Below, in pieces: positions 5,671 through 57,639 of a stretch of DNA of 64,000 bases. Origin of the DNA: Catajapyx aquilonaris (lineage: Eukaryota). The notes beneath the pieces were generated by a model. The model saw nothing but the letters and a program-made list of their open reading frames with translations, did not search any database and was not told the origin of the DNA. The stretch spans positions 62,001 through 126,000 of the forward strand of contig JYFJ02000410.1 in the NCBI GenBank assembly GCA_000934665.2, given 5' to 3'. Both the position numbers and the translations under genes were made by a program. How positions within the stretch are numbered: the first letter of the stretch is position 1; every line of letters starts with the position of its first letter.

Positions 5671-5976
5671 AATCAACGAAACAAATAATGTAGGCTACGA
5701 GAACACCAAAAGAATTAATCAAACGATGTAAAACTTAACTAAACAAACGATACAAAACAAAAGAAACAAACGATATGACAACAAAAGTAAACAAACGATG
5801 TAAAAATCAACAAAGCACAAAAAAGTGCTTTGTTGATTTTTTACATAGTTTGTTTACTTTTGTTGTCACATCGTTTGTTTCTTTGGTTTTTGTATCGTTT
5901 GTTTCGTTAATTTTTACATCGTTTGATTAATTCTTTTGCTGTTCTCGTAGCCTACATCATTATAGTTTCGTTGATT
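5671..5976. repeat. ~306-bp foldback palindrome inside a degenerate AAACAAACGAT minisatellite
   Basis: Arm 5671-5818 (AATCAACGAAAC...ATCAACAAAGCAC) is the near reverse complement of arm 5825-5976 (GTGCTTTGTTGAT...GTTTCGTTGATT), with an A6 loop at 5819-5824. The same sub-repeat continues in direct orientation at ~5610-5670 and ~6000-6060. Confidence 0.92.
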
Positions 5977-8840
5977 CGTTGATAGTTTCGATGATGACGA
6001 AAGAAACGATATACGAGAACAAAAAAATGAAGTAGAATTTCAACGAAACAAACGATGTAGACCCAAGTACAGTATAGCTCAACTCGAATTATGACTCCTC
6101 TGTATGCCATGTCTGTACCTACTTCTGAAAGCAGATTCTGCCCACCCCAATATCTTATGTTTGGAGTACGCTGACAACATCGCCCTGTAGATTTCTTTGA
6201 AATCCAAGCTGCTCCCCCATTTGCTATTACTTATACTCGAGAGCAGCTCAGTAACTTGTAAGAAAAACGTGACGCATGTGAGTACCGCAATCCAAGCAAA
6301 TCGCGTGCAGCACGACTCAAATATTTAGTCAGCCCCTGAGAAGCAGGGAGAGAACCCCGTGGTCTTCAATTCCGGGCTCATGACTCTCAGTGCATGTATA
6401 CAGGGTGAGCTAGAAGTAACATTGCATACAGTACAAGCAGTACATTACGTCACGTACTAGACGTTCACTTGCTGCTTCTATCAGCTAAATAACTAACAGC
6501 CTGTGTATGTATACTTTTTTTTAAAGGTAATGTGGGGACTAAATCATGTCGTGTGGAAAATGGCTCTGCTTCCTCTTCTTTTTCATCCCAACGGCGGACA
6601 CTGATTGGATGAGGTGCCAAAGCAATAAGCGTTCGGGAGGGGGGCAGAACCTAACAATGCTATTGATTGCTCTAGGTTTTTTTTCCCCACCCCGTCGTAC
6701 TCTTTCAGGGGGGCGGAGGGCACCAGGCAAGGGCAGGCCTCAAAGGATTGGAAGGGAAAGAAAGGAGATGGGGGAACTCCGCACACCTACAAAAATAAGC
6801 TTAGTTCCGGGAGCAGGGCACAAAATTGGACCGGACAATTCCGGGACACTTGTACCATCCAGACGTAACGACTTGGGTCTGGGAAAAAGGACTGGGAAGG
6901 TTTTTCAATTTACAAGAGGTTCAATCTCGGATGCGGTGTGCCGTTAGTCTTTGATTGATGATTTGTCGCATTCCAGTGAAGGTTGACGCGTGAACATATG
7001 AGAAAAGAAACGATGTGGCGAAAATATTGATGTAGGATTGTGCTAAGATCTGCCCAAATGGACCTTGGACTATCTACAGAAATTAATTAATATATCAGTT
7101 ATTTTTTTCTGAAAACGATGGTAGCATTTTTCTTGTTTATTGCAACATTAATTTTATTTGTCACCTCTAAGCTCCGAAGGATAAGTATACGTGGCCATTA
7201 CATGTGCTATTAACCACTGTTCTTGCAAATAGCTTTTAAGTACTCTAGTGCACCGAAGACTGCACCTGCCCACACTGTAGCCTCTATTGTAACCAATGCA
7301 ATGTCGTGCACAGTGTCTGAATTATATTACTTCAAGTGGAAACGTGTTGTTATACCCAAGCCAGCTTGCACCTGAAGCTCCAGAAAAAGACAAAAAGGCT
7401 CCGGAATTTCAGATTTCCCCAAAGTCTTATAATACTGCACGGGTATATACGGATACGTATAGTACATTGCAACTGGGGACTGCTTTTTGCCTCGGCGCGT
7501 CTTATTGCAAAATTGCGTTAGTTTTTGCATCGTCGCACAATTTTATTCTGTGTGGCTCGCATTTTTCAGATGACATATAGGGTGTTAAGTCGCAAAAAGA
7601 TTCATTTTTAAATGCAACTCAAATTGACCAAACACAATAATTATATTTTGAACGTGTAAGAATATGTCATAACGTGCAAAAAAATGTAGTGAAAAGCTAC
7701 GTCTTTTAATTGCGAATTCGGCACTTTAGAGTCCTGATTTTTTTACATGAAAATTGTCTGAATCCCACACCCTGTACGGGATCGCAGTTTTTTGTGGTTG
7801 CGAATCACGATATTTGTAGGTGTAGCGTGTAGCTAATCCTTATAGCACCGTGGCCTTTCTTGCGAAGTGTGCAATTTTAGACCACTCTATCGATTAACTT
7901 TCCTGCTAGCTGCCTCCCCTCCCCTCCCCCAACCTTTTCCTCCCAGACACACTAATGAGAGTAGAGAAATGAATTACATTTGTCTACGTTTTGTGCATGT
8001 AGACAGACGGCTGTATAAATTGTGAGTGTCATCAGTGTCGAGCACTTGGACACTTTGCTAGGTGGAGAGAAAATTTTCAGATATAGGAGAGAATACCAGG
8101 TCCGAAGAGAGAGAGATTATTCTTATTGTCGTCCCCTCAGGACCGAGCTCTAATGACAGCATTTCGTGAGATGTCGATTCACACACACACACACACACAA
8201 AAACGAGGCCATTACTCAATCCTGATTATTCAACTTCATTAATCATGATTAAGGTTCGACCTACTTTTTTCCCCCAAGCTATAGAGAGAAAATGGAGGGT
8301 ATGCAAAAAAAAGGGGGTCAGGTATTTTTGGGGCTTGGGATTTTTACTGATTCTAATCTTTCGAATTGGTGTTTTCCTGTTTCGAGTATAAGCTTTGCCA
8401 AGGCGGAAATTAGGAATCAGGAGGGGAAAATTGCCAACCTCCTGAAGCTTTGTCGTTTGCTCCATCCTGCTTGCACTGTTAAGATCTTGGGGGGGGNGAG
8501 GGGGGGGGGGAACAGACCCTGAAGCACACTCGCATCCTGGAAGCTCTACAACCAAAGCTTCAGAATGAAAAAAAGAAGTCATCAACATGTTTTTGCTCCC
8601 CTTTTCTTGTAATTACGCTAATGAACTGCACAATCCTAAGCTTCTTATAACGAAAGAAGCAGGATAAACAAAAATCTTGGAATATATTTTTAATTATGGG
8701 CAGTGAATGCACGAGGTCAGTGCACCCACTTGACCGATAGGTTAACTCGCAGACATATTGAGCGAGAATTTCAACTCAAAATGCGCTCTAATATCTGCTA
8801 ACTTATTATAACCTGCTATTTTACTTCACTGCACGTTATA

Positions 8841-9166
8841 CAGGGTGTTTCAGCTTTTTTTGTCCGAACAGTTATCGGAAAATTGCACGTAGCTGCTACT
8901 TTGTAAGCAGTGACTTTCAAACGGTGATTTTTCGGAGGAACGGGGAATACTCCCTGCGAATCGTAGGTTGAAGTGGCATACGTGCCCGCTGAAAATTGAG
9001 GGTCGAGCCTGGAAAAAAGAAGGTCACACATGCCATGGGATGTGTGACCCTCTTTCCTCATTCCCCATTCCTCCGACAAATCACCGGTTGCAAGTCACTT
9101 CTTACAAAGTAGCAGCTATGTGCAATTTTCCGATATCTGTTCGGACAAAAAAGTTGAAACACCCTA
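8841..9166. mobile_element. Tc1/mariner-type MITE, 326 bp, ~108-bp TIRs, TA target duplication
   Basis: TA|CAGGGTGTTTCAGCTTTTTTTGTCCGAACAG... (8841-8948) pairs with ...CTGTTCGGACAAAAAAGTTGAAACACCCTA|TA (9060-9166). Internal hairpin GGTCACACAT-N8-ATGTGTGACC at 9022-9049. Confidence 0.92.
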
Positions 9167-12100
9167 TATAATTATTCTACTTCACTATGTTATTTTATTA
9201 GTTTGCCTTTAGTCTACTATTGTACTTAACTCGACAATATTATTTTATTTAAATTTATCATTTTACTTTACTTTATTTTGTGGGGCGGTTAAGTTGGTCA
9301 GAGGCACACTATAAAACATCTCCTGTAACCTTTGATGTAACTTTTAAAACACAGGCTTCAATACACCCTTCTTTGTCCCATCATGAGTATAGTTCCCATA
9401 TGCCTTGTCCTCCTCCCTTCTCAGCCAATCGATCTTTTGGCAAAAAAAAATAGAAAGAGGAGGAAGAAGAGAGAGGTAAAAAAAAGGTGAGGCCAGGTGC
9501 CGCCGCAATTTATCGTATGGCCATTAGTCGGTTCTTCCTGAAGACGCCCAGCCTCAAAGATGGCCGTCTCTTCGACCTTCTTTCTTTTTTAGGAGGAGGG
9601 CCCACTTTATAAGGATTGACTGCGGAGACGCTTTGCGACGTCCGCAACAGTCAATTAGCAGCATGTGATAAAGAGATCGGGTTTCAAGGCGGCCACTAAC
9701 AGGGGGGGAAGTTGGATGGAGGTTTTAAAAACAGCAATATGTTGATACTTTCCATGATATAGGCTAGGAGGCAATAGACGTCAACAACAGATGCCACCAG
9801 ATGTAACCATTTATAAAACAGTTGATAAATATTTTTTCTCTACGGACTTTCTGGACCTGTCAATTTATTTATTTTATAAATATCTACTTTGTATTTTATT
9901 TTTGATCGTTTATTTTGCTTATTTTATTTCAGGAATTATTTGATTCCATTTATGTTCTGTTATTGCTGCATTTTATTTTAATGACCTGTGCTGTTTGATT
10001 TATTTCATTTATTTATTGCATTTGGTTCATTATTGAGATATTTGGATCCTGTGTTTGTTTGTTTTCTCCAAATTTTGATTAATGTTTTTTACGTCAGTTA
10101 AAAATATTGTCTTCCCCTAGACACTCGCGGCAACCCACATTTCAGGCCTTTACATACGATTTTAGGCAGTTTTCTGATAATTTGGCATTATCGAATAGAA
10201 AATAATAGTCCATGGCCAACATCTTAAGAGCCTGGTTTTACATGACACAATCATAAAATTGGCTCGAAGGGAAACAGCCGGTATTAAACAGCCGAATTTA
10301 AATGCAAAGCGTCTGGTTAGTAGTCATAACGTAATTAATAGCGCCATATTTCTGGTTCAGTTAATTGAACTTGCATTGGGAAAGTGAAACATGTGTGCCC
10401 TAGTATTGATTGTTACCATTACATAAAAACCTGCGACCAGAGTGCCAACAGTTTTCAAACCGTTTCATTAACTTGTGAATAATTCAATTCAAAGCTCGAA
10501 AATGGGGTGCGCGTCAAATCTATTTTTTTCCTATACTTTTTGTGTGTGCTGATATATAGGAATAGAAGTAGCTTCGTGTTATAGGTGCTGGTGGCAGGTG
10601 GAAGTTCAACAAAAGCGGCCAATTTACCTGCCACAGCTGGAGCGTGAAAATGTCATTTTCCTGGCGACAAAACTTGACAGTGACATCACACAAAAAAAAG
10701 AAAGTCGAGCCCAAAATCCTGCCAATAAAAGTGTTTCCCCAAAAAGTTTGATTCGATTCGGCATAACATTAAATCCATCCTTCTCCCAATGGACTTACAC
10801 CCTTCTTTTTTTTAAACTTTTATCGTTTTCTGTCCCGCGTCTTGGGGGAAAAAAAGCTTTTCCCCAAAATCTGAATCCCTTCACCGAGCAATATTATTTC
10901 TGGTCATGAATTCGCAACGACACTTCAATCGGTTCACAGCCGAACGGAGTCGAATTTTCCAGTCCATGGAGCTTCACCGTTGCAGCCATTATTCCTTTCC
11001 TTTCGGTAACGGAGAGAACCCGGAGTGCTCTCGATTACGGGAACTCGAATAATGGAGAGAACCCAGGCCTCCATCCAGTTGTGTCGTGCTGGAATCAAGA
11101 GGGAGTAATTTTTCCAACAAAAAAAATTAATTTCAAAATTTTAATATTAGATCCAACTGAAATCCACAAAGTCCAAAGAGCAAGTTTCAAGATAATGGAA
11201 AGGAAATATTTTGACACTTCTGTAACCCGTGACGGTGGCGCCGCCGCGCCGTTTTTGGTTAGGGTTGCCTGTGATGGTGGCGCCCCCACCTCTTGGATAA
11301 AAGGGGGGTGCTGGTACTGATGAGGGACAGTCGTATTCTGTAGAGAGAGAGAGGAGGTCGAAATAAAAGTCCGTCCAGACACGTACCCCTTTTTCTTTTC
11401 GTGGTGTAGTGGGCCCCGGTGGGGACACACACTATAGTATTTCACCGTAAAGGTGACACTTCTCTATGTGGTTTAGTGTAGACAGAAAATTCGTGTTTGC
11501 TGGCTCGTTATGAGCAGAGTAAATGGACTTCACATGGCGATATATCACAAAGTATGATACCGGTACTATAGTGTAAATTTAAAGAATTAGGGTCATCATG
11601 CTTCATTAACAAACGATACAACCATTTTGTGACGTCAGAAAGTTATAGCTACAGTGCAACCCTGTACTATAGCAAAGGTCCAGAAGTGATGTTTCCGTCG
11701 CTTATTCACACTGTACTGTACTGTACTGGCTAAAATTTGCAGTAAAAAAGAGAGAGAATAATCCACTCGCATGAATTACTGTATGGGCAAAAATATACAC
11801 ACGGAAGTCCGGCATTAAGTACACTCAAGTACCGAGGGATTACAGCTCTGTGTTTAAAGCCTCTTTGAAGCCCGCTCCTGTCCATTTCGCTATATTCAGC
11901 ACTATTCCACCCCATCATAATTCGGGCACATAAGTTTCACTTAGCTGGAATATTTGGAAAAAGCAGCTGGAGAAAAAGTACGACACTCCTTCACCTCCAT
12001 TTTTGGCAACAATAGCCCCTATTGTAATTTCTCATTTTGAATGAAGAAGCATGGAAAAGGAGCTGCCAACAAAAAAATCACACGACCTTCATCGCATTGT

Positions 12101-13960
12101 TAATGATAGAGTGTTGGAGGTAGAGGGGTTGGAATTCAACCTATTCGAAGGCAACAAAGAAGCCAGGAAATTACCAGCTGCAGGGCGTCAAATAGAGCCG
12201 ATGGGAAGGTGACGATTCGCAAAAGGTCTCTTCTCTCTCTGAAGGAATGTAGGTTGGCCCCCAGACCTCTTTTGTTGCTAGGAGAGGTTCCGATATCAAA
12301 ATGGAAGTTTACAGTGTTAAGCCAAGTAGAGGTGACGAATAAAACAGGGCGGTGCAAAATTTGAAGTAAAATTGAGCTGATTCCCAGCCATGCCGATAAG
12401 TTCTGATCAGCCCAAGCAATGATAGGAAGAAAATCCAAATTTTTTATGTTCGCTGTATATGTGGAGAAAGTTTGGTGGAGAAGATGGGGGGCCAGTAGCT
12501 GAAATTTCGATTGGAGTTTTTGTAATGGCAAAACGCATCGAGCCAGTAAGAAGGTTTTAGGAGGGAAACGTTCGTATTGTTGTCTGAGCCCTTATCGGAT
12601 TTGGAAGGAGGGGAGAGAAAATGGGCGTTGGGATTGAGAAATGTTTTGCTTTGGTATATATTGTATCAGGTTCTGGCCAAATGCGCAGGAAGTTTCTCTC
12701 CAGAGGGATTCAATCACTTACGAACTATATACACTCAGCCGATTCGGGCTCAACGTACCGTGTGTCATAATTCAGCTTTCATTCACGGGAGTAGCAAATT
12801 GCTTCTGAATACGGTCTTATACTGTTAGTTCGATCTATCCTAGTCTTGGACTAGCCCACCTATTCCCAGAATCAGCAAGTGCTTATTGAATACCGACCTT
12901 TGACTTAGTCCACATTAGTCTGCCCCTACCATAATCCGGGGGACCACCATTGACATTTCCATCCCATCAATCATGGCGTGCACAATGCGCCTAGTAATCT
13001 CTAAACCATCGGACTTGATTGTTGACGTCGTACCCTCGTCGCAATACTCTCCATTAACGGCTTGCCAATGACGTCACCTCTGTTTGGCTTCCATTAGTCC
13101 CCATTTTTTTCCTCTCTCTCCTTTTTTTTTGTGTGCATGCAAAACCATTAATCTCTAGTTTTTTAGTGGGAGGGGCATCCCAGCAGCACAAATGAAGAGT
13201 CCCGCAATGTGATGTCCAAAAATGGGAAGTTGAATAAGAGGAATGGAACGTCGATGGCTGGGTATTGAAGGTATTTTCCTGATGGTGGTGTGGGTGTGGG
13301 TGGGTGGGTGGTAGGTTGGACATCCATTGTGGGGAAGTGGTGCGAGTTGCCCGCTGCAGCCACCGCGGTCTGTCACTTCCGCCTGGCTTTCAATTATTCC
13401 CTCCCCCCTTTTGCATTGTGCCGGCCGATGAGACGATTAGTGGCCGTGCTTTCTCTCCGACGCTTTCCATCAATGTCTCGTCTCATTGTCAGCGACAAAA
13501 CATCCTCAGCAGTCAGAGAGCCAGAGAGCCAGGTCGCCCACCTATCAAAAGGAAGGGCCATCGGTAATTACTAGGTGGATCAATCTAGTGCAAAGCTCAC
13601 GTGATGCGCAGTAATCGCACTTTAGCGGCAACATGACATGAAAAGTAGCCGTTATTCTCGTGTAACTGCTATGAGTAGCCTCACTGCTAAATAAGCTAGC
13701 CATTGTTATGGGGTGAGTGACCTTCAATGCAGACATCTCAGGGTCACTGACCTTTAACGTGGAACAGGCCACAGGAAATGTAATATAGGCCTACGTAATA
13801 TACAGTATATTTATTTTCAAATTTGGAATTAAATTGATTGTAATTAAGTCATCTACCAGAAACAGTAAAAGCTCTTATTACTAGGTCATACGGAAAGGAT
13901 CCGTGTTGACCCGTTTTGACCTCGTGTCCTAGCTGACATGGCTGCAATCACATGTATTAA

Positions 13961-14057
13961 TATTAGTTAACACTATTAGAATATTGATATTAGTTAACAC
14001 TATCCGAATATTGATATTAGTTAACACTATACGAATATTGATATTAGTTAACAATAT
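13961..14057 (+). repeat. 27-bp minisatellite, ~3.6 copies
   Basis: Unit TATTAGTTAACACTATNNGAATATTGA starting at 13961, 13988 and 14015, with a partial copy at 14042. Confidence 0.92.
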
Positions 14058-16745: not shown

Positions 16746-19700
16746 GCACAGTAAGCTATGTATAACATACATAATAATGCAACATAGATTTAGATTATGT
16801 CGTGACAGCTGGTGAAATTGCAAAATTTAATTCAATTAAGCTGTTTCATATTGTATTTTTTTAAATAGCATGACGAAATACCTCAAAGCAACTTCTGTAG
16901 TGTGTGTCCATAATAATTTAAAAATCTGCAAAAAATTACTTTCTGGAATTATACGTGATGGGGCAACAGTGTCTATAGAAATGTTGCAGAGAAAATATTT
17001 GACCCAGCCATCTGTCGCCAGGTTTCTCATCAGTACAAAAAAAATTCGTAAACAAAAATATGGAGACCAGGCCTGTACACACACATCCAGTTTTACTCCC
17101 CCACGTTGCATCCCCGGGAGCGCAATATGTTATAATATCCTTGTCACACTTGAGCTCAGCCAGCATTTCAAGCCTGGACTTTATGGAAGAGAAGCTGGGG
17201 TTTTACTGTCACAATCTACAGGCCTCCGAAGGCCCCATGAGCTTGGAGATACCGGGAAGGGAAAATACTTGGGGACGTCAACTCTCTCAGGACCCAAGGA
17301 CTTGCATGTGTGTGTTCCGTATGAGTTATACTACATGTGGAACAAAGTTGATGACTTGCTGTAGGCCCCCAGGAAATTACTCTTCGGGATAAAAAGGACG
17401 GCAGCTGCGACTTAGATATACGCGCTCAGATCGGTGCATGTGTGTGACGTATTCAATCTTGTCTAGGAAGAAGGAGGAAGAAAGGAAAAAAAAAAAATCT
17501 CAATATGTTTCCGGCTTTAGTACTGTGCCTCGGAAGTTCAATATATTGTACAGCGATGGAGAGTTTTAAAGCTCGAGACTGATCACTGCTATTTTTGGCC
17601 CAGCAGTGACTATTTATGCGAGTATTTATCCGTAGCAGTGACAGCTAAAGGCGGTAATAGCAGTTTAACAGTGACTGTAGCAGTTATCATTGTCAGATAA
17701 AAATCAAACAGGTTAAAAGCATATTTTCATTAAAATCAGTAGCTTAATTTAATTTAATTAATAAATAGTCAAACATATCAATCGACAACAAAAAATTTGC
17801 ATGGCAAAAATATTACCTAATGTGCAAAATTTCGTTTTGGGCAAATATGTCAATCACAATTCAAAATTGCTATAGCATCAAAATGTTATTGACAGGTTTA
17901 AAGTTTAGTTGTAAATAATGAAATTTACCAAAGCAAAAATATTATTAGTTAAATTTTTTGGCAAATGAGTGTTTCTTGCTCTTTTTATGGTGCATATTCA
18001 AATAGACATTACTTTTATTTATAATTGTTAAAATTTTAAATATCCAGGCTACAAAATGAGGCGTGAAAATCGCTCCTACTGTACTGTACGTTATTTTTGG
18101 GGACACCACTAAAACCAAGGGTAATTATATTTGCAAGCAACCGTCTGAGGTAAATAAGGTAATAAATTTAGTCTCATCAGATTAATCGCTAACAATGCTG
18201 TAATGACAGGCTTTTGCCGCTACTCCTGTCTCGAGAAGATTTACTTGATATTGGCTTCATTAATGTTTCATGACCTAATCATCGGAAAACTTTTGCAAAT
18301 TCGCGGCAAAGAGCTGTGGCTTTGCACTTTCTGGGGCCAGTAATTAATTGGAAATTTCTTGCTTCAAAGTATTTCAGTCGTCGTCAGATGGCGGTTACCC
18401 GTAACAGAGACGAAGCGAGAATTTATCTGTCGAAACCATTTTGAACTAGATAATCCGGAGATTAATTTGCTATGCGGAACAATATACTGTATTAATTGAA
18501 TGCAACCAAAACATTAGCATCTTCAAACCAGCGCAATGCAATAGTTCAATATTTTAATAAAGATATTATGACGATTTAGGCATCCGTGTTACATGTGCGG
18601 TGTTTACTAATTATTTCCAATGTTTGTCGATGTTTTTACTGTTACAGTGTTGCAATATTTTGAAAGGGGGGGGTGGGGGGAAACCCAACCTTCTGCACTT
18701 TCTTCATACTCGTCCCATTATCCATGTCCTGACGAGGCTTGCAAAACGCAAGGCCTCTTTCTTGGGGTGAGGCCCCTGATGAAGTCCCAGTCGTCATATT
18801 CGCACTGCCAGAGCTCGGGAATGGAATGAAAGAAGTGCAAGGCCCCCACCAAAAAAAACCGAGTGAAGTTTCTGGAGCCATATTTGACTGAGAGCTGAAA
18901 ATGAGAGAGAGGAAAGAAAGAGTAAAGAATAAGAAAAAAAAGATGGTTCAACAAAGGCCCAGTTTCTCCTACATTTTACTCTGCCGTTAATAAAGGGTTA
19001 AGCTAGGTTGGGCTTATTTTGTTGGTTACTTAATCAGTCGATTGAAAGAACTTTAAGTCGCAGTTTTCTGCAGAGTAACTTCATAAAAATAGAATCCCTC
19101 GTCAGATATAGCCACTTTTGGTGTATATTACCCACAATTTAGAAGGTAACCTCTCCACCTCAAAAACATGGTTAGATATTCGTTTTTGGCTCGGAAAATA
19201 GGCAACTAGATTTATTCCATTTGCAGGGGAGGTGCTTTTCTTTTTCCTCCCCTTTTGGGATGTCGCCTGGAAGCAGAATTATGGTCGACCGCCGGGTTAG
19301 CCCTGTGGCAGCCTCTCATTTGCGACTGTTTGCTCTCCATCTCTCTCAGGCGACACTGGATTCACATTCGAAATGAACAGCAATGGTTGGGAGGGAAAAG
19401 CAATTTCCTGGCCTCCCCGAAGGAAAAGGCAAGGGGAAAAAGTGGAGAAAGTTGAAACTCTCTCTATTTGAACTAGACTCCAGATCTAATGTTGTCAAAA
19501 CAGTCACGTATTATCTAATATAACAGTTCAAATCGCTTTGTTGCCACGTATTAGGCAGAAAATTTTCCATCAGAAAAATATTCCAGCCCTTTTTACTATT
19601 CTACTGAATTTTCGGCGGAAAAGTAGCTCCGGCCACAGTGTGACAGGCGCAAAGCTGGTCACGTTTCCGCCAACTAATCGCGCGGATGTGCATGGAGGAA

Positions 19701-23744: not shown

Positions 23745-23974
23745 TTTTTTTTCCCCTGTACCCCGTTATCTGGCCGATAGGCCATTTCTAGGGGGGTGGG
23801 TTACCACCATTTGTGGTTTGGAGCGATACATATACGTATATCTTAATTGCTCCAAGGGTAATTAGGAGGGAATGTGCGAAGTGCAAGTGCGCTGTCGTTA
23901 ATTGGTCATTTTGTGAACTCCCCCGGGTGGCTTAGTCTATCGGAAATTGCCACCCGAAACGAAGCCAGAGATGG
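23745..23974 (-). mobile_element. 5'-truncated SINE copy with poly(A) tail and 14-bp TSD
   Basis: The reverse complement matches the body of the SINE at 45350-45543 (CCATCTCTGGCTTCGTTTCGGGTGGCAATTTCCG...GACTAAGCCACCCGGGG...AGTTCACAAAATGAC). A poly(T) run lies at the left end. Perfect direct repeat ATTTTCGGCTAATT at 23731-23744 and 23975-23988. Confidence 0.9.
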
Positions 23975-24730
23975 ATTTTCGGCTAATTACAGTATGTCAA
24001 CTAATAGCCGCTACTGGTAACTGATACATGTGAAAAGCAGTTATTGAAGTTATTAAAATGTGCTATTATATCCCATTTGTAATTAACTTATAATTGAACC
24101 CACTTACATGCTTCATAGTTGTAAAGAAACTTATGGGTCCTTGCGCCTCCATAACAGACCTTTGCATAAAATGTTCATGCAGAAACTTATTATGAGACAT
24201 TTCAAGCCTGGCAATAACAGGAATTTCTCTTTGCCTACCCGTAATAAACCGCATCCTTATTCTCTCAAAAAATAGACACCGCGAAGATCATCCCCATTGC
24301 TTAACGATGAACAGTAAAAATGTTTCGGGTCGTCACTCAGAATAACCGTGAAAAAATAACAACATTTTTTTTTTGTCGCATTAAAACGGCAGTAGGTTGA
24401 ATGTAATCCTGGGGCATCCTCCAACCAAGAGCTTTGAAAAAAAGGTATGGGGCTGGGCTGAGAAAATAATGAAATCCATGTCGAGGAGGCAACATGGCCG
24501 ACATTTCCTCCCGTAATTTCAATTTTGTGGAGCTATAAAAATCCGAGCTGAGAAGGACACGGGTCGTCATAAATATGTAATAGCTACCCATTCATTTTTC
24601 ATCGCGTCCCATTTTTTCCACCCCTCCTCCTCTCTTTCTCCATGCTGCTGTCCCCCCTACTATCTCTTTTGAACGTTATCCATGGCTCTTCTACAATCCA
24701 GACTCCGGGGCTGCCATGCCCGGATTTATA

Positions 24731-25201
24731 CAGGGTGTTTGGTTAAAAATATGCCATCGGATAGAGGATGAAATTCTGAATCGAAAAGCCCTCTGCCAAT
24801 TTGAGGTGAAACGTACTGCTGAGGCGATACAACTCTGCAAATATTGGGTAAATCAACCGCTATTTTGTAAACAGTATACTCGTAATATTCTCAGTGTGAA
24901 ATTACATTATTGTCTCACTTCATATGTGTTTAAAATGTGAAAAACATTCAGTGTTACCGGTACTCGTTTAGTATTAAATGAGCGATAAATGACAGTGATT
25001 TGAGTCAATAATCGCGTCACTGCGACATATGAATAAATCGCTGCTTACCAAAATCGCTGTTTAGAACTTTTTGCATAAACTTTGGAAGGTTGTATCTCAT
25101 AACCTGTTACTTTTACAACAAAATGGCATATGACTTTTCGATTCAGAATGACGTCCTCTACTTGTGCTATCATGATTATCATATGTTTACTGACCACCCT
25201 G
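24731..25201. mobile_element. Older Tc1/mariner-type MITE, 471 bp, diverged ~120-bp TIRs
   Basis: TA|CAGGGTG...TAGAGGATGAAATTCTGAATCGAAAAG... versus ...CTTTTCGATTCAGAATGACGTCCTCTA...CACCCTG|TA. The two TIRs translate to similar pseudo-peptides in the ORF track (EDEILNRK / EDVILNRK). Confidence 0.85.
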
Positions 25202-27325
25202 TATGTACTTGTATAAAACCAGGCCACTCAAGGTTTGGCGTGCAGTGTAAACACTACAGGCCGCATTTTGTTTATCTGAGGTTTGGAGGGATGCGCAAAT
25301 AGGAATTGCTTGTGTTAGGGGGGGGGGGGNGGGTCGAAACCCAGGCTAATTTGAACGGATGCCTTCCTCCTAGTTAATGGTTAAAACAATAGGCTGCGGA
25401 TAATCTGATTATCCAGGGGTGATCTGGAATCCGATAGATGAGATAGAAAGCATGTGAATAAAATAAAAGTCGCGAAGGCTTGGGGAGAACAAAAGCCTTT
25501 TAAAAACATACGATTCTTTATCCTTTGTGGGATCAACCTTATAGGATCAGCTTTGTGAATTTTGTTTTATGTAATATTAAGTGCAAACATTTTCCTCTTC
25601 CAAAATGATGTACTTGTGTGAATCTCCAGCCTCCTTCCCATACAACCGTTATCTTAACCGATCTGTGACCCCATCCCTTGATAGCCGCACTATTTGGATT
25701 CGAAAAGTGTTCCGCTTCGTATGCCGGAAAAGCAGTGAGTGCCGAGCGAGCCCTTCTTTCGTCCCTCTTAGTATTCTGACAGGGACGTCCGAGCTCGCGT
25801 CTGATAGAGCAAATTGTCAGAAGAACCAACCATCCTACAAATGGAAGGGGGACGCCAAGGTCTGTCTCTCTCCAAAATGTTCAGCCCTTGCAAAACCATC
25901 CAACATCTCAAGAAGAAGAAGAGAGAAAAAAAAAACTTGTTCAGATATCCGACGAAAACTCAGCAACAATGGTACTTTCTAATCTTTCACCTGTGTCTGA
26001 AAATCCAATTACCTAGAGCACAGAGAGAAAATGGACCGGGTCGAGGCCACTTCCAAACATCTAACTCATTTGCTGCCAATATTCACTCTTTATACGTGAC
26101 AGAAGACCTAATTTGTTACCGATTTTCGATACCAAAGTCTCGCAAGCGTTTTACCTTGTGCGCCACATTTATACACTTCCAGCACACAAGGGACCCTGTA
26201 CTTTATTGTGCATGTGTTGTGTCTATTCCACACTTTTTTTAAGGTACAAAATTCACGAACAGCTCTCAAATATGACAAATTGCGACAATTTTTTAAAATC
26301 AGGAAGGTACCGTTGTAATTTGCCAAGTGTTGCTCCTCACGTGGTTATATAACTTTCCGAGAGTAATTTCGAAAATGTGTACCACTCAAGGTAATCAAAA
26401 TCTTGGTTGGAAAGAGAACTTTTATTCCAAAAAAAATAAAAATGGAGGCTGGCAGGTATATACTCCCAAGAATTTTCTCTCTTTTTTTCCAAGCTATGGA
26501 TGGAACGCAATTTGAGATTGGTCATTCCAGAGCTCCGCTTCCTTTTTAAAGCGAAACTGACATTGGATTGCTCCATTGTTCGCTCGTCAGCTGCATTCAA
26601 CGTGACAGTTACGGTGGGGAGGAGACGGAATGAAACTTGATGTTTTCAGATTGATGCCACATGTTTTTCCATCAAGTCTTGGGAGCGAAAAGGTCCTCCG
26701 GTTAGATAGAAAAAGAACTTGGATGGGAAGAAAATGAAAGAAAATTCCAGGATATATTATGAGGAAAAAGAAGGTGACAAATTCGTGCCGGAATTTGAAT
26801 GGAAAAACTGACAAATGTCTGGGGCGTCCTGAGAGACTAATCCTTAAAATTTGAATCACTATGAAACACCCTGTATGCACAGCACAAACAGTAGAGATCT
26901 GTTTAAAAATTTAAACTGCAGCCATGCAAAGCAGAGTTTCATCCCTGAAATTCTTCTGAATCCAATCCAGGAATTCCATCCGTCGCCGAGTTCTTGTGTT
27001 CCTTGGTTGGAAGCTGTGACTTTATGCAGTCAGCCCGAAGAAAAGCCTTACCTAACTCCATGCACAAGCCCAAGGAGTGTTTCGGGATCAGTTTTAGAGC
27101 AAAGGAACCGGGCATGCATACTACACGAGACGCATACCATTTGTAAAGCCTTGTCTCGACACACACTACTAGATTCAGTCTGTTCAGCTCTGCTACAAAG
27201 GATTTTAGTTCAAAAAACTGTTTGTTCTTTTTAATTTATTGCATTGCATTGTAGCACTTATAGGACTGTAAAAATTAACTTGCACATCCCAACATAATAT
27301 GTGTTCGAAGCCCAGTATCTCAAAG

Positions 27326-27373
27326 ACTAAATGACACCTCTACATAATGTTATCCTTTGCTGCTCAGGTATGT
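27326..27373 (+). other. Weaker candidate recursive splice site, or an ordinary 5' splice site
   Basis: TTATCCTTTGCTGCTCAG|GTATGT with AG|GT at 27366-27369, preceded by a ~40-nt AG-free stretch. The pyrimidine tract and branch point are weaker than at 32272. Confidence 0.3.
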
Positions 27374-30624: not shown

Positions 30625-30800
30625 GAAATGAGTAAGGTTGGTTAGGTTAGGGTTAGGGTTAGGATTAGGGAGAGGTTAGGTTAGGGACAGAATGATTATG
30701 TAAGGTAATTGTTAGGATAGGCTCAGGGTAGACGTGAATTAGAGTTAGAATCGCCTCTCTTGGTGGCTAGTTTCAGCTTCAGGTCTGCTACCATACTCAT
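30625..30800 (-). mobile_element. Small non-autonomous element with short inverted ends and an internal TTAGG/TTAGGG tract
   Basis: Left end GAAATGAGTAAGGT is followed by TTAGG-like repeats (~30636-30690). The right end CTTGGTGGCTAGTTTCAGCTTCAGGTCTGCTACCATACTCAT is homologous to the arms of the element at 51562-51684. Confidence 0.65.
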
Positions 30801-32246
30801 ACCCTTAGACACACGCGGCAACCCATCCGTTGCTATAGGCAAAAGCCCACATCTACATTTTCGACATTTTGATCTCGTGACGATACTTTCGACTACGTTT
30901 TCCGACTCACCCTGCAGTTCGAAGGATGAAAACGGGGTGTCTCTTTTTGCTTGTGGTCCTGTGGGGGCCAGCTTTTCGCTCCGGGGAATCTTTGGGGGCC
31001 TTTCATCATCATCCAATCTCGTTTAGGCCCCGTGACATGGGAAACCAATGACGCCATATTGCTTTCAGTGGGGGGTAGAAGGGGGGGGGGTGCCAAGGCT
31101 TGGAGACTTGGGTGGGTGGGATAGAAGGCTGAGCAATCATGACCTCGGGGATGGAGACGAATCGCGCGCTGGAGCAGAATCTGAATCGGTTTTAATGGCG
31201 CGATCTTGGACTGGAAACTCAACCAGCACAAATTAGCTGGGAGCTGCCTTTTTGTGTCCTGAAGCCAGACGCAACAATACTCCGAAATAATTTTTTGTAG
31301 TGGGAACAATGTGGTTCCCAATTAAGGGCCAATGACTCAAAAAAACCTCAGCAGTAAGGCAAGAAAAAATATTGAATTTCATCCCACTAGCGTTCTATAT
31401 AATTATTATTTTGTACAAGTGTCCTCCATAATAGGACACTTGCACAAAATAATGATAATTAGTCGTTATGTTAGTTTTGCATTATTTGCTAATAGAAATA
31501 TAAACATTTTTAAAATTATACAAAAAAAAAATCAGGTATATCAGGGACATGTTGGAAACGCGTGTAAACTTTAGTCACCCATATTGGAAACTACTCGATC
31601 CTTCAAAATCTTTCTGAATTTATGGCCTGTCAGGTTCTCTCTCCTTAAAGTTATTCCCAGCCTAAGATCCACTCATGTTGAGAAGAGGAAGGATGGGGGC
31701 TAGTTCATAGTCAAGGCTAGACTCTGGTGACACTGATCAACGCGTCCTTCTTATTCACCATTGCGTGCCAGGGAGATTTAACAAGCCGGAGATCAATAAG
31801 GTTCTTCCAAATTATTGAGTTCGGGAGAGAGGAAGGGGCGGGGAAGAGGAGAAAAGAAATGGTTCTTCAGGTTCTTCTCCATGGAAATTCTAAAAAAAAA
31901 GAGAGAGAGAGAGGAATTCCAGACCTCCCCCTACCCTTCACGAAATGATTCAACAGCTGTTTTACAGCAGGGAAGCGATTGGGACACCTCGTTTTTCATT
32001 TTCAGGGAGCTCTGCGTGCGTGTGCCCCGAATTGAAATAACCCTGTAGTACAGGGTGGTTCGTTCTCTCAATTCTATATGTTAAAACACCTTCATGTCGT
32101 GCGGCTATAATATTTTGGAAGGAAGCAGCATGAGCCATCTACTGATTTCTTTTTCAACTTCTTGCACAGGACAATTCTGTGAGATATGCCCTATATGATG
32201 ACATTTGAAGCATAAAGTGAAAAATACTTGCTCGCAAAAAAATGTG

Positions 32247-32278
32247 TTCTAACCACTGTTTTCTCTTTACAGGTAAGC
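32247..32278 (+). other. Candidate recursive splice site (ratchet point, zero-nucleotide exon) at AG|GT 32272/32273
   Basis: Sequence TTCTAACCACTGTTTTCTCTTTACAG|GTAAGC. Branch-point motif CTAAC at 32249-32253, pyrimidine tract 32256-32270, CAG acceptor followed directly by a GTAAG donor. There is no AG dinucleotide from 32218 to 32270. Confidence 0.65.
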
Positions 32279-32893
32279 CTTTCCTACACAGCTATTCGGC
32301 AGCTCAACACCCTCTAAAGTAGGTGGTACTTTTCCTTCCCAAATTAATAATCAGGGAAAGGGGGGCTGCAATCAAATTTCGGAGGGGAACCATCCCCCCT
32401 TCCTTTGATTGCAGCTCTGACGTTAGGCCTCCTAAGCATACATATCATTACTCGTTAAGCATTCGCGAATTAATAATTAATCACAGTTATTTGCTTGCTG
32501 GCTTGGAGAGCAAAGAGCACGAGGCCTCCTGATCCGTTTGGGAGGGCTCCGGCTCGTTCAGTACTCAAGGGCTTGCCCCAGCTCAAATCCGTGGTTAAAT
32601 AACCCCCAGCTCTCACTTGCGCATCGGGGGTTTAAATCCTGCACTACATATCAGGCTTGCACACTAGATTATCGGGTGCACTATATACTGACCGGTGTAT
32701 CATATCTGTGGAGTGAACTGTACTGCGGCGGTGGGAGTAGCATGAATTATTATTGTTAAGCGATACACTGTACTTTGGTTAAGCCGCACTGTGACTTAAG
32801 CCTTACTAATTTAGGGTAATAAGTGCGCATGTTAATTAAATGGAGTGAATTATGTGCTGAGCAGACCGGATGATGGTGTCAACTGCGGTTTTA

Positions 32894-33852
32894 CAGGGTG
32901 GTCCAACAATATAAGTATTGTGTTTGCGTACAATTTGTTAATTATAAATAATAAATTCGTCTCCTATTTACCATCAATTATGTAAGTTTCAGGCCCTGTA
33001 CGCAGGTACTATTCCTCGTAAAATAATGTTTCAATTGTGTTTATTTCAATTTCAAACGAACTGTACGTCAACAATTAATATGACATCTATGTAGGAGATT
33101 TTTTAAAAACGGTGAACATGGAACAAGGCGTACAATAATTTTGGAAACTTAATATTCATTCGTAATTATGCAAAAATTCCCAAATTTCACATTTCAGATT
33201 TTTGATCAGTTTGCCCAAAATCTGCATTTAAAATGTACTGAAACGTAACACTGTGCTATTTTATATACTACTTTTACGTACAGTACTCCATAGAGTATTG
33301 AGAGTGCATGTGTTATTATACTTGTTAGGTTTGGACTACCGAATACTGAAAATGTAAGTGAACAAATAGGGCTGCTATATACGCGTTAAATGGTTTAAAA
33401 CCCTTGTTCCTGTGGGAAAAAGCCGTTGTATCGCTTTCGGTTTTTTTAAACTCTCTATTCAGCGTTAACAAATAGGCTTTTAAATTAGAAACATGGGGCT
33501 CAACTGATCGATACACGTGTTTTTCAAACCGCCTCTTTTTTCCGAGATAAATCCAACACTAACCCTTGGCTTTACAGTACGCTAAGTGGGGTCCAATCCT
33601 CTGAAGAATTGGAATAAAAGGGGTCGCACATTTGGACAAACCTTACTCTTTAATTTTATTGTACCGATGGGCCATCCAATCTTCTTAAACTGTTCACCTT
33701 ACAGTACGTGATGAATAATTATACGTATATAGAATAATATTGGCTCGAATAAAGTATATGCCTCGGCTTGTCCAGTGTGAGTCATGTATATGAGAGATGT
33801 GGTACTACGTCTATAGTGGCTCACTAGTTTCTCTAGAAAGTGGACCACCCTG
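32894..33852. mobile_element. Non-autonomous Tc1/mariner-like element, ~959 bp
   Basis: TA|CAGGGTGGTCCA ... TGGACCACCCTG|TA: a 12-bp perfect terminal inverted match with TA on both sides. The interior is AT-rich with no transposase ORF. The ends could belong to two separate insertions. Confidence 0.6.
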
Positions 33853-36800
33853 TACACCATCCATGCTGGGAAAAAGGAATAGACCAGAGATTGGATTGTT
33901 TCAAGAGACCAAATCGATTTCTAAAGACCTTTTACCTGAAGCTTTCCGGGACACGGAAAGAGCAGACGACATGGGTTAACCATTCCCACGTTTCGTAATC
34001 GGTGTTAAATCCGATTGGGACAGGTTCGAGAATATCCGCAATGCAGGACTTGATCTCTCATGGACTACTCGTGGATTTATTTTTAGATAAAAAAATTCCT
34101 AAAATTTTTCCCCCCCAAAAAGGAGGGCCCCTATCATCCTCTGTTCTCTTTGCGTCGTACTTGAAACCTTCCAAGCCTCTCTAGGGCCATTTTCGTTTCC
34201 CACCTGGTCCTCCGCATGTAAAGTAGATCCAGGATTAAAGCCTAATTACACTTGATCCTCCGAACAGGTCGCTATATCGATCCCATGGAAAATTTTACCT
34301 TTACTCATTTTCCCCTTCCACCTTGGCATTATTTGCCTATACCGAAAGTCGCTCTCTTCAAACACAGACACTTTCGATAGCCCTTAACTCCTGATGGGAA
34401 ACTTTCCAAAGTTTGTCCCAATTTTCTGTCCCCCATACACTGCATAAATTATAAATGGGCGCGCACGTAATCTACAAGTGTGCTGGAATATGCGAAATTA
34501 GTATCGATTGCCAATGCTCCACAGTAATTATTGTCCTCGTTATTTTCCAGCCGGAGTTGATAGTATCGAATTGTTTGATAATTAACCTTCTGCTGCAGTG
34601 AAAACTGTACGAAACAATTTTTTGGATGGGCTTCTTTTCCTCCTGGCAAGGGATGATAAGCGGTCTGACATGTAACTGATTGACCTATCTAATCTGCTGG
34701 GCTGTCAATTAAACGAGGGGTATAATTTTGGGGTGGGGGGAAGTACATGGCACGATTTTCTCCAACACTGATGTGATGGGAGAGAGCCAATGGAGCGAGA
34801 GGCGAAACGAGCATGACAAGGGCAATTTGATTCATGAATAAATATTACTATTGTAATGTGGGTTGACATTTCCGCATAAAACAAATCCGTAAATATTCAT
34901 TGGTTCAGGGTATAGGGTACAATCATTGTGCTTGCGTGATATTTATTTTTATGCACTATGATTTTGGCGTTGTCAGTCAATTTTTTTCCAATAACAATAA
35001 TGTCGGGTCGGCTGTAATCATTGGGGAACAATGAAGTGCTCATTTGGCAAATTGGGGGGACGATCCGGCTTGTTTCAAGCTGGATTGTCATATTAAAATA
35101 TTATTCAGTCATTACTTTTTCATTATTCAAAGTGTTGCAATGACACACTTTTATTACAGTAGTATTTGAAATTCACGCACTGGAACTGTTCATTAACTCG
35201 GATATGCCTGATTTTTTTTTGTTAAACCCTTTAGATATTTTATGAGCAAATTAACTAACATAATGACAAAAAAGCTGACTGTGCAGTGTACTGTACCTGT
35301 AGAGTATAACTCGAGGCAATTATATTTCCGATAATATTAGGATTTAAAAATTTTCATTCCTGGAATTAAAGTAAACGTCTTTACTCTACTTAGCACATCA
35401 ATAACCTTGGAGTTAAGAAGCCTTCTTTAAAAAGATTGGCCTCGTATCTTTTCCCGCACTTTCGATACATGTATATATCTCCACTCTCGCGAGACATAAA
35501 ATCTCATAAAAAAATTTGATGTCCTCCTGTTATGACGCAGTTGACACTCTTGTAACAACGGCAGCATTTTCTGGCGAGACGTTTAATGGCAGCCAAATGT
35601 AGCACACCAGGACGGGGGGCGTTTATAGCTGGCGGATTCTGGGTTATATATATAGTCTATCCCTATAGTCATCGGATCGATAGCTTTTGCCTGCTGGCTT
35701 ATTTACAGCAGTAGGTGATAAATCCGGGGGTAGAAATTTTGTTGAGTTATCTGCAACCGAAGGGTTTGTCAGCACCGCGTCTATTATGCCCTGTTGCTCA
35801 ACGAATTAGCACGGAAATTTGTGAGCGGAGTGTAATTTATGCGGCTAGAAATGCGCACAAATCAGAGTGCCCAAATCACTGTGGACAGATCCACTCACAG
35901 AAGTTGACTGTTTACACTCAAAATTTCGGGTTGGCGATAGTCCCTCATGGCTGGTTCCAACTGGCTGTAAATTTAGTCAACTCCAAAGCGTTTAACAATA
36001 GGAGCCGTGTCCAACAATCTTCCAAATTAATTTCCGCGTTAAATGAAGTACAAGTCGATTGAATCCTGGATGTATATACAACACACCAAAATGGCCCAAA
36101 TGGAGCCAAAATTCGCAGCGTAATAATTGGGGGATTGTCAGGCAAATTTAATATGCATTAAACGCATTATGCTTACGTTAATGTGCTTTTGTGGGTTCAC
36201 ATATGTGATAAATTAATTGCGGGTGACGATACCACAGTTACGGGTATCAATATTCACCTGACAGTAATAGTGTACATGCCGCGGAATTACCACGTTTTGA
36301 TAGACCAGTAATTGCTCAAAAATGGGATATAATAATTGAATATCCTGTTTGACCCTGAGGCTCTGAATTTTGACGCTGATGTTGCTGCAAAATTGTTAAT
36401 ACATTCTGTGATTACCGCTCCAATCGCTTATTTTCCTCATTATTCCCGTTAACTGAATTTTTTTTTAAATGCGTGAATTAAAATTATTTAAAATCGCATT
36501 TTATTGGATTTAATAAAATCTATATAACATTTGCAAATTACATTTTGCAGAAATTTATTATTTTGAAGATCACAGAGAAGACTTACCAATTTACAGTTAT
36601 TTAAAATTCGCAAACATTATTCAAGCAAAATTTTATCAAAATGTCTATTACTGAGTATAATTTTCTCTAATTTGTTCAGAATTTTTGCTCAGGTACCTAA
36701 CATGTTGATGGAGAGATATTTTATCATTTTTGTCCAAGCTTTGCATGTACAAACGTTTATGTTAATTGTACGTACAGTAGCTTGTTTTTGGTAAGGCTAT

Positions 36801-45246: not shown

Positions 45247-45600
45247 GGGGAGACGGAGTGGCGCCGCGGTAACGCGCGCGCCCACGGAAGTTAAGGTCCC
45301 GGGTTCAATCCCCACCCGGGGTTCCCACCTTCTTTCGTGCAGAGTTGGGCCATCTCTGGCTTCGTTTCGGGTGGCAATTTCCGGCAGACTAAGCCACCCG
45401 GGGGAGTTCACAAAATGACGATTAGAGACATTGCACTTGCACATTGCACATCCCCTCCCACCCACCCTTGGAGCATACTAATTAAGATTCTTCTTAAACT
45501 CGCTCCAAAACAAATTCCAAAGGTGGCAACTCACCCCCCCCTAAGGAGTAGTATAACTCCCCCCGTGGGGTAATGAAATATATATATATATATATATATA
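45247..45600 (+). mobile_element. Full-length tRNA-derived SINE with Pol III A/B boxes and (TA)n tail
   Basis: A-box-like TGGCGCCGCGG at 45259-45269 and B-box GGTTCAATCCC at 45302-45312. The body is shared with the copy at 23745-23974. (TA)n tail at ~45579-45600. Probable TSD TCTGCACAAT (45237-45246) / TCTGCATAAT (45601-45610). Confidence 0.85.
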
Positions 45601-54600: not shown

Positions 54601-55707
54601 ACATACGTTTCTCATCATCTCTATAAAATATTTTAGACTATTAAAGTTGTGGTAGGGCTTGAGTGACAGGATATCTCCAGGGTTAAAAATTTGGGAAAAA
54701 CATGGCACGTAATTATTTGCTTGTGGTTTTTCAATTATTTGGGATGAGAAGTGCATAATGGTATTTGCAAAAAATGACTGTAGGCATCAGTCAGTTTCTC
54801 ACCCTGAAGCTCTTGAGAGAGATTTTTTTTTTTTTCCTCCAGAGTTTTCCTGGTGTGGGAATATCCTGACTTGCTCCTTGCATGCACTTACTATAGACCT
54901 AGAAAAGTCCACAGAAAAAGAAAAAGAAAAGGAAGAAGAACCGGAAGGAGAGAGAAAGTTCAGTCGATCGATCTCTCGAAAAGTAGTGAAGTACGGAAGT
55001 CTTTTTTTAAAAGTTCAAACCACGTTTTGTTCTCTCTTTTTTGTTAAGCAGTGCCTTTTTTATTTTTAGAGGGCTCAATATATCTACTGTAAGGTTTATG
55101 AGGTTAAACTTTTCTGAAAATGCAGGCAGAGCTAATCAAGAGTGCTGTGGGGGCTGCGGACAAATTTTTTTCTCCATACATATAAGAATGGGGGGCAGTG
55201 CTGGTTTTTGATCAAATACCCTTAGGGTTACATGTACCGCGCAGTTAGGTCAAAAGTGCAATTAATCCCTCCATAAATCACATCCATCTGTACAAACCTA
55301 GCCTTATGCAACTTACATGGATCCACGCTTTTGTATAGCATATGACTATTAAATAACTATGCCATATAACTAAACGTGATGATTACCGGTAATAAAAAAA
55401 AATAATTAACAAGACGCGCAAGATTACCTGCCTAAAAGAATGTTAGTACCTAAATTACTAAAATGTTACTATAAAAGTCACAGTAAACTATACGTATTAG
55501 AATAATACTTTTAGTAAATAGTATTAGTATCATTAAATAAAACCATGGCTTAATAGTAAAATAATTAATATAATTAAACAAGTGATGTAATAAAGCAATT
55601 GAATAAGCCAATTGATAAATAAAACGTGCACACAAAATAAAATGAATGAATAATAAAATTTCATTTTTCATTTTCAAACATTTAATGTCTTAAAATTAAA
55701 AATAAGA

Positions 55708-55821
55708 AAATTAAACAAATAACGAATATAATAAATACTGAAATTAAACAAATAACGAATATGCTAAATACTGAAATTAAACAAATAATTAATATAATAA
55801 ATATTGAAATTAAACAAATAT
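55708..55821 (+). repeat. AT-rich 33-bp minisatellite, ~3.4 copies
   Basis: Unit AAATTAAACAAATAACGAATATAATAAATACTG starting at 55708, 55741 and 55774, with a partial copy at 55807. Confidence 0.9.
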
Positions 55822-57639
55822 ATTATATTTTATTAAATATAATATAATAATACAGGATATTAAAATTTATCTTTAATTATTAAGTAAATTAAGGCACAAT
55901 TTGCAAACATATTGAGTGATTAATTTGATTGGCAGTTATTGTTTAGTAAGTTGATGTCAAAGCCTGTAATACCCTACTAACATGCATTGTTCCCACCTGT
56001 TAATTAATTCCGAGTTATTTTCTCGTCCATTAAGATGCAAATCGCATTGGTTACGAGCATAGCGTCGTATCCATAACCAGCGCAACGTCATTCTTTCTTC
56101 TTCTTTATTTTTGTCCTTCTGAAGTTGAAGCATTTCCTTCGGTGTGGTTTACCCCCCCCCCCTCTCCCCTCCCTCCTTCTCCTATACCATCCCCCCCCCC
56201 CCCGGAATCCTGGCCGCTTTTCCTCATTTTGAGCTCTCTCTGCTCTGAAGTTGGTGGGCTCTTGTCATGAGAAGAGGTTTCGTCTGGTTGCGAGCGCCAA
56301 AGAAATCACAGCACAGCCTGCGAGACAAAGATAAGGGGAGGGGAGTATTGTGAGTGCCCGGATTTACTTTGTCAGGGGATACATCCTCGGGACAAGAATC
56401 GCGATACCAGGTGGCATTAAAGCTGCATTTTCAAGCTCGAAATTAACGTTCGGAGAGAGAGAGAGAAACGCAAAAGCAATGCGCCATATAAGGCGATATA
56501 GCCATTCATTTAATTAACGCTTGCCTCATTTGTTTGCACAGAAAAGACGGTGTTGCCACAAATGAATGACTTACGTTTTGCACAGCCATGTCAAAAGCTA
56601 TACTCGGAAAATTAATGGCAAGCCCCAGTTTTCGGGCATCGAAGTGAAAAGCAGTCAGATAAGCCCGTGACTTACGATCGTAATCGCAGTGGGACGGATG
56701 ATTATTTTAGGGCTTTTCCATTTTGCAGTTTTTGGGGCTTCAAGGAGAAATAGATGTGTGGCTGTTGCTGCAGGTTATACTCTGTTAATTAGCACTAAGC
56801 TTGGGCTTTAAGCTTGCTTAATAATAATTCGAGGTCCCTTTCATGTTTTCTTGCAATTCCATCTCTTTTTTGAAATATAATTTGTGCCATTAACTAATTG
56901 TAAACTATGAGGAAAAATGAGATGTTTTGTGTTGCGGGGGCAAAATGTGATATTAAGTTTTCCAGTGCGAAATATTGTAAATATATGTTAATTTATGCTA
57001 TATTGTAAATGTGTTGTCTGTCAGTAAAATGAGCTGACTTCATGATGCCAACAAGTGAATCCCGCAATGCGCCAATTTATTTTTGATTATGTCTAATTTG
57101 AGGTTACATCAAAAAGAACTAGTTAATGACAAGACAGGTAAATGACACTGTGAGCAACATTACGACGTCACTGTACAAGCAACAATTACAGAATCATGTG
57201 TCACAGTTGTACGTAGATAAAATCATCAAATAAAACCTCTCTTCGGAACTGTTCTCGGTGCCAGCGTTTTACTGTTAAAATATTAATTTCGCGCATGTGC
57301 TAAATCCCAGGTCAGGGTCTCATGACTGGTTCACCTCGATGGGTTTCCATCGTTTAATTGCCGGCCACTAGGCACATTCCCCTTGAACTGTAAGTGCGCT
57401 AAATATTTCAAGCACTACTGCAGTATACCGGTATAGAGGCCACGCTATATCTGGTTGCACAGTTCAGACACGCTATTTTCATTTGCGGTTATCACAAAGC
57501 TCAGAATGTTTTAAGTCTGCACATTTGCTCTCGAACAGTGGAGCAAAAAAAAATCGCAAATTTCCCATTAAAGCCTGTCTGCAATATTATTTTAGTTAGA
57601 TCCGGATACACTGTATTTTATCCCAAACAAGCAAATTTT

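Follow-up and report, generated by a model that had tools for sequence, protein, structure and literature searches.

On its sequence, the site at position 32273 of the + strand is a competent splice motif, in which an acceptor runs directly into a donor, and it fits every criterion of a Drosophila ratchet point that can be read from DNA, with its candidate branch-point A at one end of the range reported for flies. The reading that we rate highest is nevertheless that the site is a fortuitous, unused splice-site look-alike (probability about 0.45); we infer its non-use from base rates, not from observation. In the 64-kb stretch of DNA analysed here (the window), a pyrimidine-rich non-coding patch would happen to have put a good acceptor (CTAAC, pyrimidine tract and CAG) directly 5' of GTAAGC. 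A mediocre donor would lie 46 nt further on by chance and would have no programmed role, and either the + strand would not be transcribed as an intron at 32273 or the site would be used at noise level only.

On the + strand, ACAG ending at 32272 comes next to the run TTTTCTCTTT and is followed directly by GTAAGC (32273-32278; Table 1, where, as in the text, a slash within a motif marks the splice boundary). Pyrimidines occupy 10/10 positions over -14..-5 and 14/16 over -20..-5, with C at -3, and a survey of the AGGT sites found both a CTRAY motif and the 53-nt AG-free zone at this one. Measured against the consensus MAG/GTRAGT, the donor at 32273 matches at 8/9 positions vs 7/9 for the weaker donor at 32319. 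Folded against shuffles, the surrounding RNA shows no stable structure (z +1.26). The first-pass annotation had described a branch point, an AG-free zone, a pyrimidine tract and CAG/GTAAG, and each lies exactly where it had been placed; the second donor, AAA/GTAGGT at 32319, and the 46-nt interval that it would close were likewise exact on rereading.

Upstream, an acceptor-like sequence opens an interval that runs to the donor at 32273 (32006-32272, 267 nt). This interval had been called closed by stops in all three frames, and a frame check agrees. The frames open at 32272 extend back merely to 32216 or 32221, within the AG-free zone, and an open reading frame up to the donor at 32273, as at an ordinary coding exon boundary, was not found. 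On this frame check, neither candidate exon was accepted as coding.

Table 1. Sequence features at and around the candidate site at 32273 (positions in the window).
Feature	Position	Strand	Remarks
Acceptor-like TTTTTCATTTTCAG/G	31992-32005, boundary 32005/32006	+	9/10 pyrimidines, TT at -5/-6
13-mer TACAGGGTGGTTC, MITE-terminus-like	32049-32061	+	224 nt upstream of the 32273 site
AG-free zone, 53 nt, 5' of the acceptor AG	32218-32270	+	direct sequence reading
CTAAC, branch-point-like	32249-32253	+	candidate branch A at 32252, which is -21 with the G of AG as -1
Pyrimidine tract TTTTCTCTTT	32259-32268	+	TT at -5/-6 (T32267, T32268)
Acceptor/donor juxtaposition TTTTCTCTTTACAG/GTAAGC	boundary 32272/32273, part 32271-32278	+	
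Candidate cryptic RS-exon	32273-32318	+	46 nt, not a multiple of 3
Second donor AAA/GTAGGT	32319-32324	+	GT at 32319; 7/9 match to MAG/GTRAGT
Stable hairpin	32362-32418	+	43 nt 3' of the second donor; -39.3 kcal/mol, z -4.28, 0/200 shuffles as stable

The motif is rare by any count made within the window. A strict pattern, YYYYYYNCAGGTAAG, has a single match on both strands vs 0.04 expected, and at least one match arises in 4/100 shuffles. The looser pattern YYYYNYAGGTRAG also has one match, the 32273 site, vs 0.52 expected, and finds a match in 43/100 shuffles. AGGT occurs 403 times in the window, 205 times on the + strand and 198 times on the - strand, and 32273 alone combines GTRAG with at least 8/10 pyrimidines at -14..-5. 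The window's own frequencies give a similar picture. Of its 7248 AG sites, 25 have at least 9/10 pyrimidines, a pyrimidine at -3 and TT at -5/-6, and GTRAG directly follows AG in 12, from which 0.041 coincidences of a good tract with GTRAG are expected per 64-kb window. With the downstream donor added the expectation falls to ~0.003 per 64 kb; a donor of at least 7/9 is found 30-80 nt 3' of 10% of random anchor positions. Of 400 windows drawn from a third-order Markov model, 14 contained the fly-type core, one the core together with a donor of at least 7/9 at 30-80 nt downstream, and none the full composite (core, donor, CTRAY and at least 30 nt free of AG), the features behind these strictest figures having been picked post hoc with the site already in view.

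Rarity in one window reads differently at the scale of a genome. With 0.035-0.041 cores expected in every 64 kb, one Gb of similar DNA would hold ~600 by chance, and ~40-60 chance matches per Gb would remain when the downstream donor is included. The 32273 site would on this reckoning be an outlier for one window, yet one to be expected many times in a large genome. The + strand has 36 strong acceptor-like sites, of which three, at 32006, 32273 and 32292, fall within 290 nt of one another and are the only ones in 28-37 kb. The site at 32273 sits in a locally pyrimidine-rich patch, and the cluster could reflect a real exon or recursive unit, or a compositional patch. The survey of AGGT sites found no second fly-type site on the + strand in the 64 kb. 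A weaker AG/GT at 27368 (+), reading TTATCCTTTGCTGCTCAG/GTATGT with 8/10 pyrimidines and without TT at -5/-6, is the sole other AGGT on the + strand whose tract and donor are passable.

The surroundings carry no recognisable gene. Stop-to-stop open reading frames of at least 55 aa on both strands (438 in total, 104 of at least 90 aa and 334 of 55-89 aa) were compared with Pfam at E<=0.01, except for one batch of 55-89 aa frames held to E<=0.001, and none of the 438 reached the cutoff; no transposon protein was detectable among them in the 64 kb. The best scores were noise below the cutoff (in bits, Nrap_D3 18.3 vs 23.1, ARM_LIN 17 vs 27, BILF1 16 vs 50, gp37_C 17.6 vs 22.5 and SLX1_C 17 vs 27.2). 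A further 81 open segments bounded by splice-like sites gave no Pfam match and divide into 40 on the + and 41 on the - strand, with no strand excess. These results bear out the first-pass view that the window is without a recognisable coding exon. Rfam at gathering scores over the whole window and an ARAGORN tRNA scan each returned nothing. The longest open reading frame, 16840-17361 (+), had one match in a full HMMER search (E 7e-8), to a 493-aa repetitive low-complexity frame without a Pfam family; the match was read as compositional and the frame was rejected as a gene. A word-index homology search found no relatives of the 69-aa frame adjoining the site, and the exact 24-mer of the site core had no match in metagenome contigs.

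Two measures of strand bias give a weak hint of + strand transcription, namely AATAAA, with 68 occurrences on the + strand vs 92 on the - strand, and GC skew, at +0.022 +/- 0.010 with 12/16 blocks positive. TA skew is +0.007 +/- 0.008. The observed/expected ratio of CpG over the window is 0.75 at 41% G+C, which speaks against both a vertebrate and Drosophila. A landscape in which no transposon protein can be detected is of the kind seen in the long introns and deserts of developmental genes.

In flies, Duff et al. (10.1101/006163) reported 197 ratchet points, the host introns being 11-133 kb long. TT stands at -5/-6 in 196 of the 197, and most branch points, usually an A, fall between -36 and -21, peaking at -30; conservation is far above that of other intronic AG/GT, and recursive segments average 18 kb. 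According to Joseph et al. (PMC8605326), a fly ratchet point requires a cryptic RS-exon of ~50 nt that is little conserved and mostly out of frame, and the donor of this exon is out-competed by the regenerated one. Pai et al. (PMC6110457) add that most fly introns longer than 40 kb carry recursive sites. Comparison with the S1 table of the latter was by string counts, and its row-by-row figures come from part 1 of 11. A hand count over the first 47 rows gave GTRAG in 42/47 and GTAAGC in 11/47; across the whole table, AGGTAAGC occurs 43 times, AGGTAAGT 37 times and AGGTGAGT 51 times among 560 AGGT strings. The 14-mer CTTTACAGGTAAGC is common to the 32273 site and one high-confidence fly site in that table (PMC6110457).

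Feature by feature, the candidate follows the fly pattern closely. The juxtaposed (Y)n-NCAG/GTAAG of fly ratchet points is present at 32273, their TT at -5/-6 is matched by T32267 and T32268, and the GTAAGC donor that is frequent at fly sites is the donor here. Read as a motif, the candidate branch A at -21 coincides with the proximal limit of the fly range of -36..-21. The fly RS-exon, of ~50 nt, out of frame and with a weaker donor, has its counterpart in the 46-nt interval with donors of 7/9 vs 8/9, a likeness to be read against the 10% of random anchors that have such a donor. Both the fly sites and the candidate stand in a setting without nearby coding exons. Fly sites, however, are defined by host intron, junction reads, saw-tooth patterns, lariats and conservation, whereas the candidate is a motif read from DNA.

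A second reading, tentative but serious and already proposed in the first-pass annotation, would make 32273 a true recursive splice site, with the window lying in a long + strand intron. Recognition of the TT-rich tract and CTAAC would fall to U2AF and U2, and the acceptor ending at 32272 and the 32319 donor would be paired through exon definition. Joining of the upstream exon to 32273 would regenerate a 5' splice site (exon/GTAAGC), which would out-compete the weaker GTAGGT, and the 46-nt cryptic exon would be removed with the next intron segment. What was observed is the motif, and each step of its recursive use is carried over from the fly mechanism. The TT dinucleotide shared with all but one of the fly ratchet points, the GTAAGC donor, a candidate branch A inside the fly range and an out-of-frame interval with a weaker donor, as the fly RS-exon model requires, all argue for recursion, as do the unstructured RNA, the smaller number of AATAAA on the + strand and the positive GC skew. 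The site is moreover the best of the 403 AGGT sites, and its composite turned up in 0-1 of the 400 simulated windows, although the strictest of these chance estimates uses post hoc features. The candidate branch point is as close to the acceptor as the fly range allows, and there is a single candidate in 64 kb vs the 18 kb of the mean fly segment; both count against recursion. The fortuitous look-alike is favoured by the want of any gene sign on either strand in the Pfam, Rfam and tRNA scans, by a chance rate that is small per window and large per genome, by a pyrimidine patch that alone yields 3/36 of the strong + strand acceptor-like sites, and by the lack of a second fly-type site on the + strand. 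The motif may also ride on inserted DNA, because a 13-mer resembling a transposon terminus is found 224 nt 5' of 32273. A fortuitous origin has to contend with a full composite that no simulated window reproduced, with a match to the fly ratchet point that is complete on the criteria legible in DNA and extends to the 14-mer shared with one fly site, with the weak + strand hints, and with 64 kb free of Pfam-detectable transposon protein. How the two readings weigh against each other would depend on the density of true recursive sites in the host organism. Were the fly abundance of such sites in very long introns to hold here, true sites of this kind would be more numerous than chance ones; were they as sparse as in the early vertebrate catalogues (PMC5126111), chance would dominate.

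Two further readings give the site other roles. The donor at 32273 could be the ordinary donor of a non-coding exon, 32006-32272, in a 5' UTR or lncRNA, with ends TTTTTCATTTTCAG/G and CAG/GTAAGC; the pyrimidine tract and CTAAC inside the 3' end of that exon would then be coincidental. We consider this, the alternative offered in the first-pass annotation, unlikely. Both of its ends are strong (the acceptor with 9/10 pyrimidines and TT at -5/-6, the donor 8/9), 267 nt is a typical length for an internal exon, and a second strong acceptor within 300 nt would be expected only ~0.06 times by chance, as estimated from 25 sites per 128 kb. Such an exon cannot be coding, however, with three frames closed, and its interior would have to carry by chance a tract found at only 25/7248 AG sites; the AG-free zone and CTAAC suit an acceptor better than the interior of an exon. 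More remote still is the reading in which the splice-like motif is borne by a mobile element, the DNA from 32049 onward being a decayed, non-autonomous Tc1/mariner-like element and one of many copies. The TA + CAGGGTG ends would be those of the Tc1/mariner-like superfamily. The terminus family TA+CAGGGTG(G/T)T(T/C)C has 12 matches at <=2 mismatches vs 1.84 expected, a number that 0/100 shuffles reach, and its 13-mer bounds two clear, palindromic MITE-like elements, 8839-9168 (330 bp; listed also as 8836-9171) and 24729-25203 (475 bp). At 32049 the terminus of this CAGGGTG family is solo; an inverted match of 21 nt at 81% joins 32048-32068 to 33835-33855. Four weak negatives speak against an element: self-BLAST of the window returned nothing over 31000-33500 and no other copy of that segment, as the first-pass annotation had held in placing the site outside detected repeats; local alignments among the stretches 3' of TACAGGGTG termini did not rise above shuffles; and neither the exact core 24-mer in metagenome contigs nor the adjacent 69-aa frame brought up a relative.

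Outside flies, comparable systems share parts of this pattern. According to the review PMC5126111, human recursive sites do not have the fly consensus. Vertebrate RS-exons (Sibley et al. 2015, as reviewed in PMC5126111; see also Blazquez et al., PMC6224609) have YAG/GT followed by a short exon, like the candidate. As there (PMC5126111), a downstream donor would compete with the regenerated one and an out-of-frame exon would act as a poison exon if included, but of the two only the candidate has the fly consensus with TT at -5/-6. In the locust, the fly position matrix predicts a recursive site in the 230-kb intron 2 of NPF1, and U2AF65 RIP supports it (PMC8892266). That site resembles the candidate in being a non-fly case with a branch point and a polyT/C tract, but it lies in a known gene and is backed by the RIP result, whereas the candidate is a sequence motif. 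This locust case was the one instance of recursive splicing in arthropods outside flies that the literature search returned (PMC8892266), and the earlier remark that the process is poorly documented there was a fair one. Pseudo-exons and decoy splice sites of long introns (the subject of a DMD pseudoexon review, PMC7175933) are good-looking, normally silent pairs of acceptor and donor in deep non-coding DNA. Such decoys have no reason to obey the fly ratchet-point grammar, which the candidate does obey.

It is possible, if short of probable, that a giant intron of a non-drosophilid invertebrate is spliced through 32273 as a functional zero-nucleotide ratchet point, the 46-nt interval serving as its cryptic RS-exon. 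If this were true, the full fly grammar (TT at -5/-6, GTAAGC and short out-of-frame exon definition) would subdivide very long introns outside flies. Good maps of recursive splicing exist for Drosophila and a few vertebrates only. Use of fly-type ratchet points in other invertebrates with much larger introns would make intron subdivision a general means of splicing over tens of kb, and such sites could in that case be predictable from sequence. A real site at 32273 would add another case of a known mechanism and not a new mechanism. A single motif is no proof of generality, and its value is that of a precisely specified, cheap test case.

Other structures occur close to the site. The stable hairpin 3' of the second donor, with a 15-bp outer stem plus an inner stem, has no Rfam match and no further copy in the window. 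A palindrome at 32040-32056, ACCCTGTAGTACAGGGT, looks like a head-to-head junction of two transposon termini and folds into a small hairpin (z -2.43, 5/200 shuffles as stable). A perfect 14-nt pair of termini of the CAGGGTG family bounds a 963-bp stretch at 32892-33854. On the - strand, an AT-rich hairpin at 31381-31476 has 27-nt arms that are 89% complementary; searched by E-value, Rfam returned two miRNA models alone over 31000-34000, both on this hairpin and far under gathering scores (for one of them, 31.7 bits vs a gathering score of 90), and it is probably a mere inverted repeat.

Elsewhere in the window, a near-perfect palindrome at 5671-5976 (306 bp; 90% over 310 nt, with 74-nt arms at 95%) is a probable MITE of another family. 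A dispersed repeat of ~190 bp has inverted copies at 23791-23974 and 45350-45539 (80% over 194 nt, with a 70-nt core at 97%), and AT-rich minisatellites lie at 13955-14057 (period 27 nt) and 55700-55853 (period 33 nt). Two identical 46-nt copies, 53 nt apart, occupy 1796-1894; one N, at 1848, separates the copies, and this duplication may be an assembly seam; four further single Ns stand at 8497, 25330, 52444 and 59939. An interstitial telomere-like array at 30640-30686 mixes TTAGG and TTAGGG units (TRF period 6, 8.3 copies, 79% matches).
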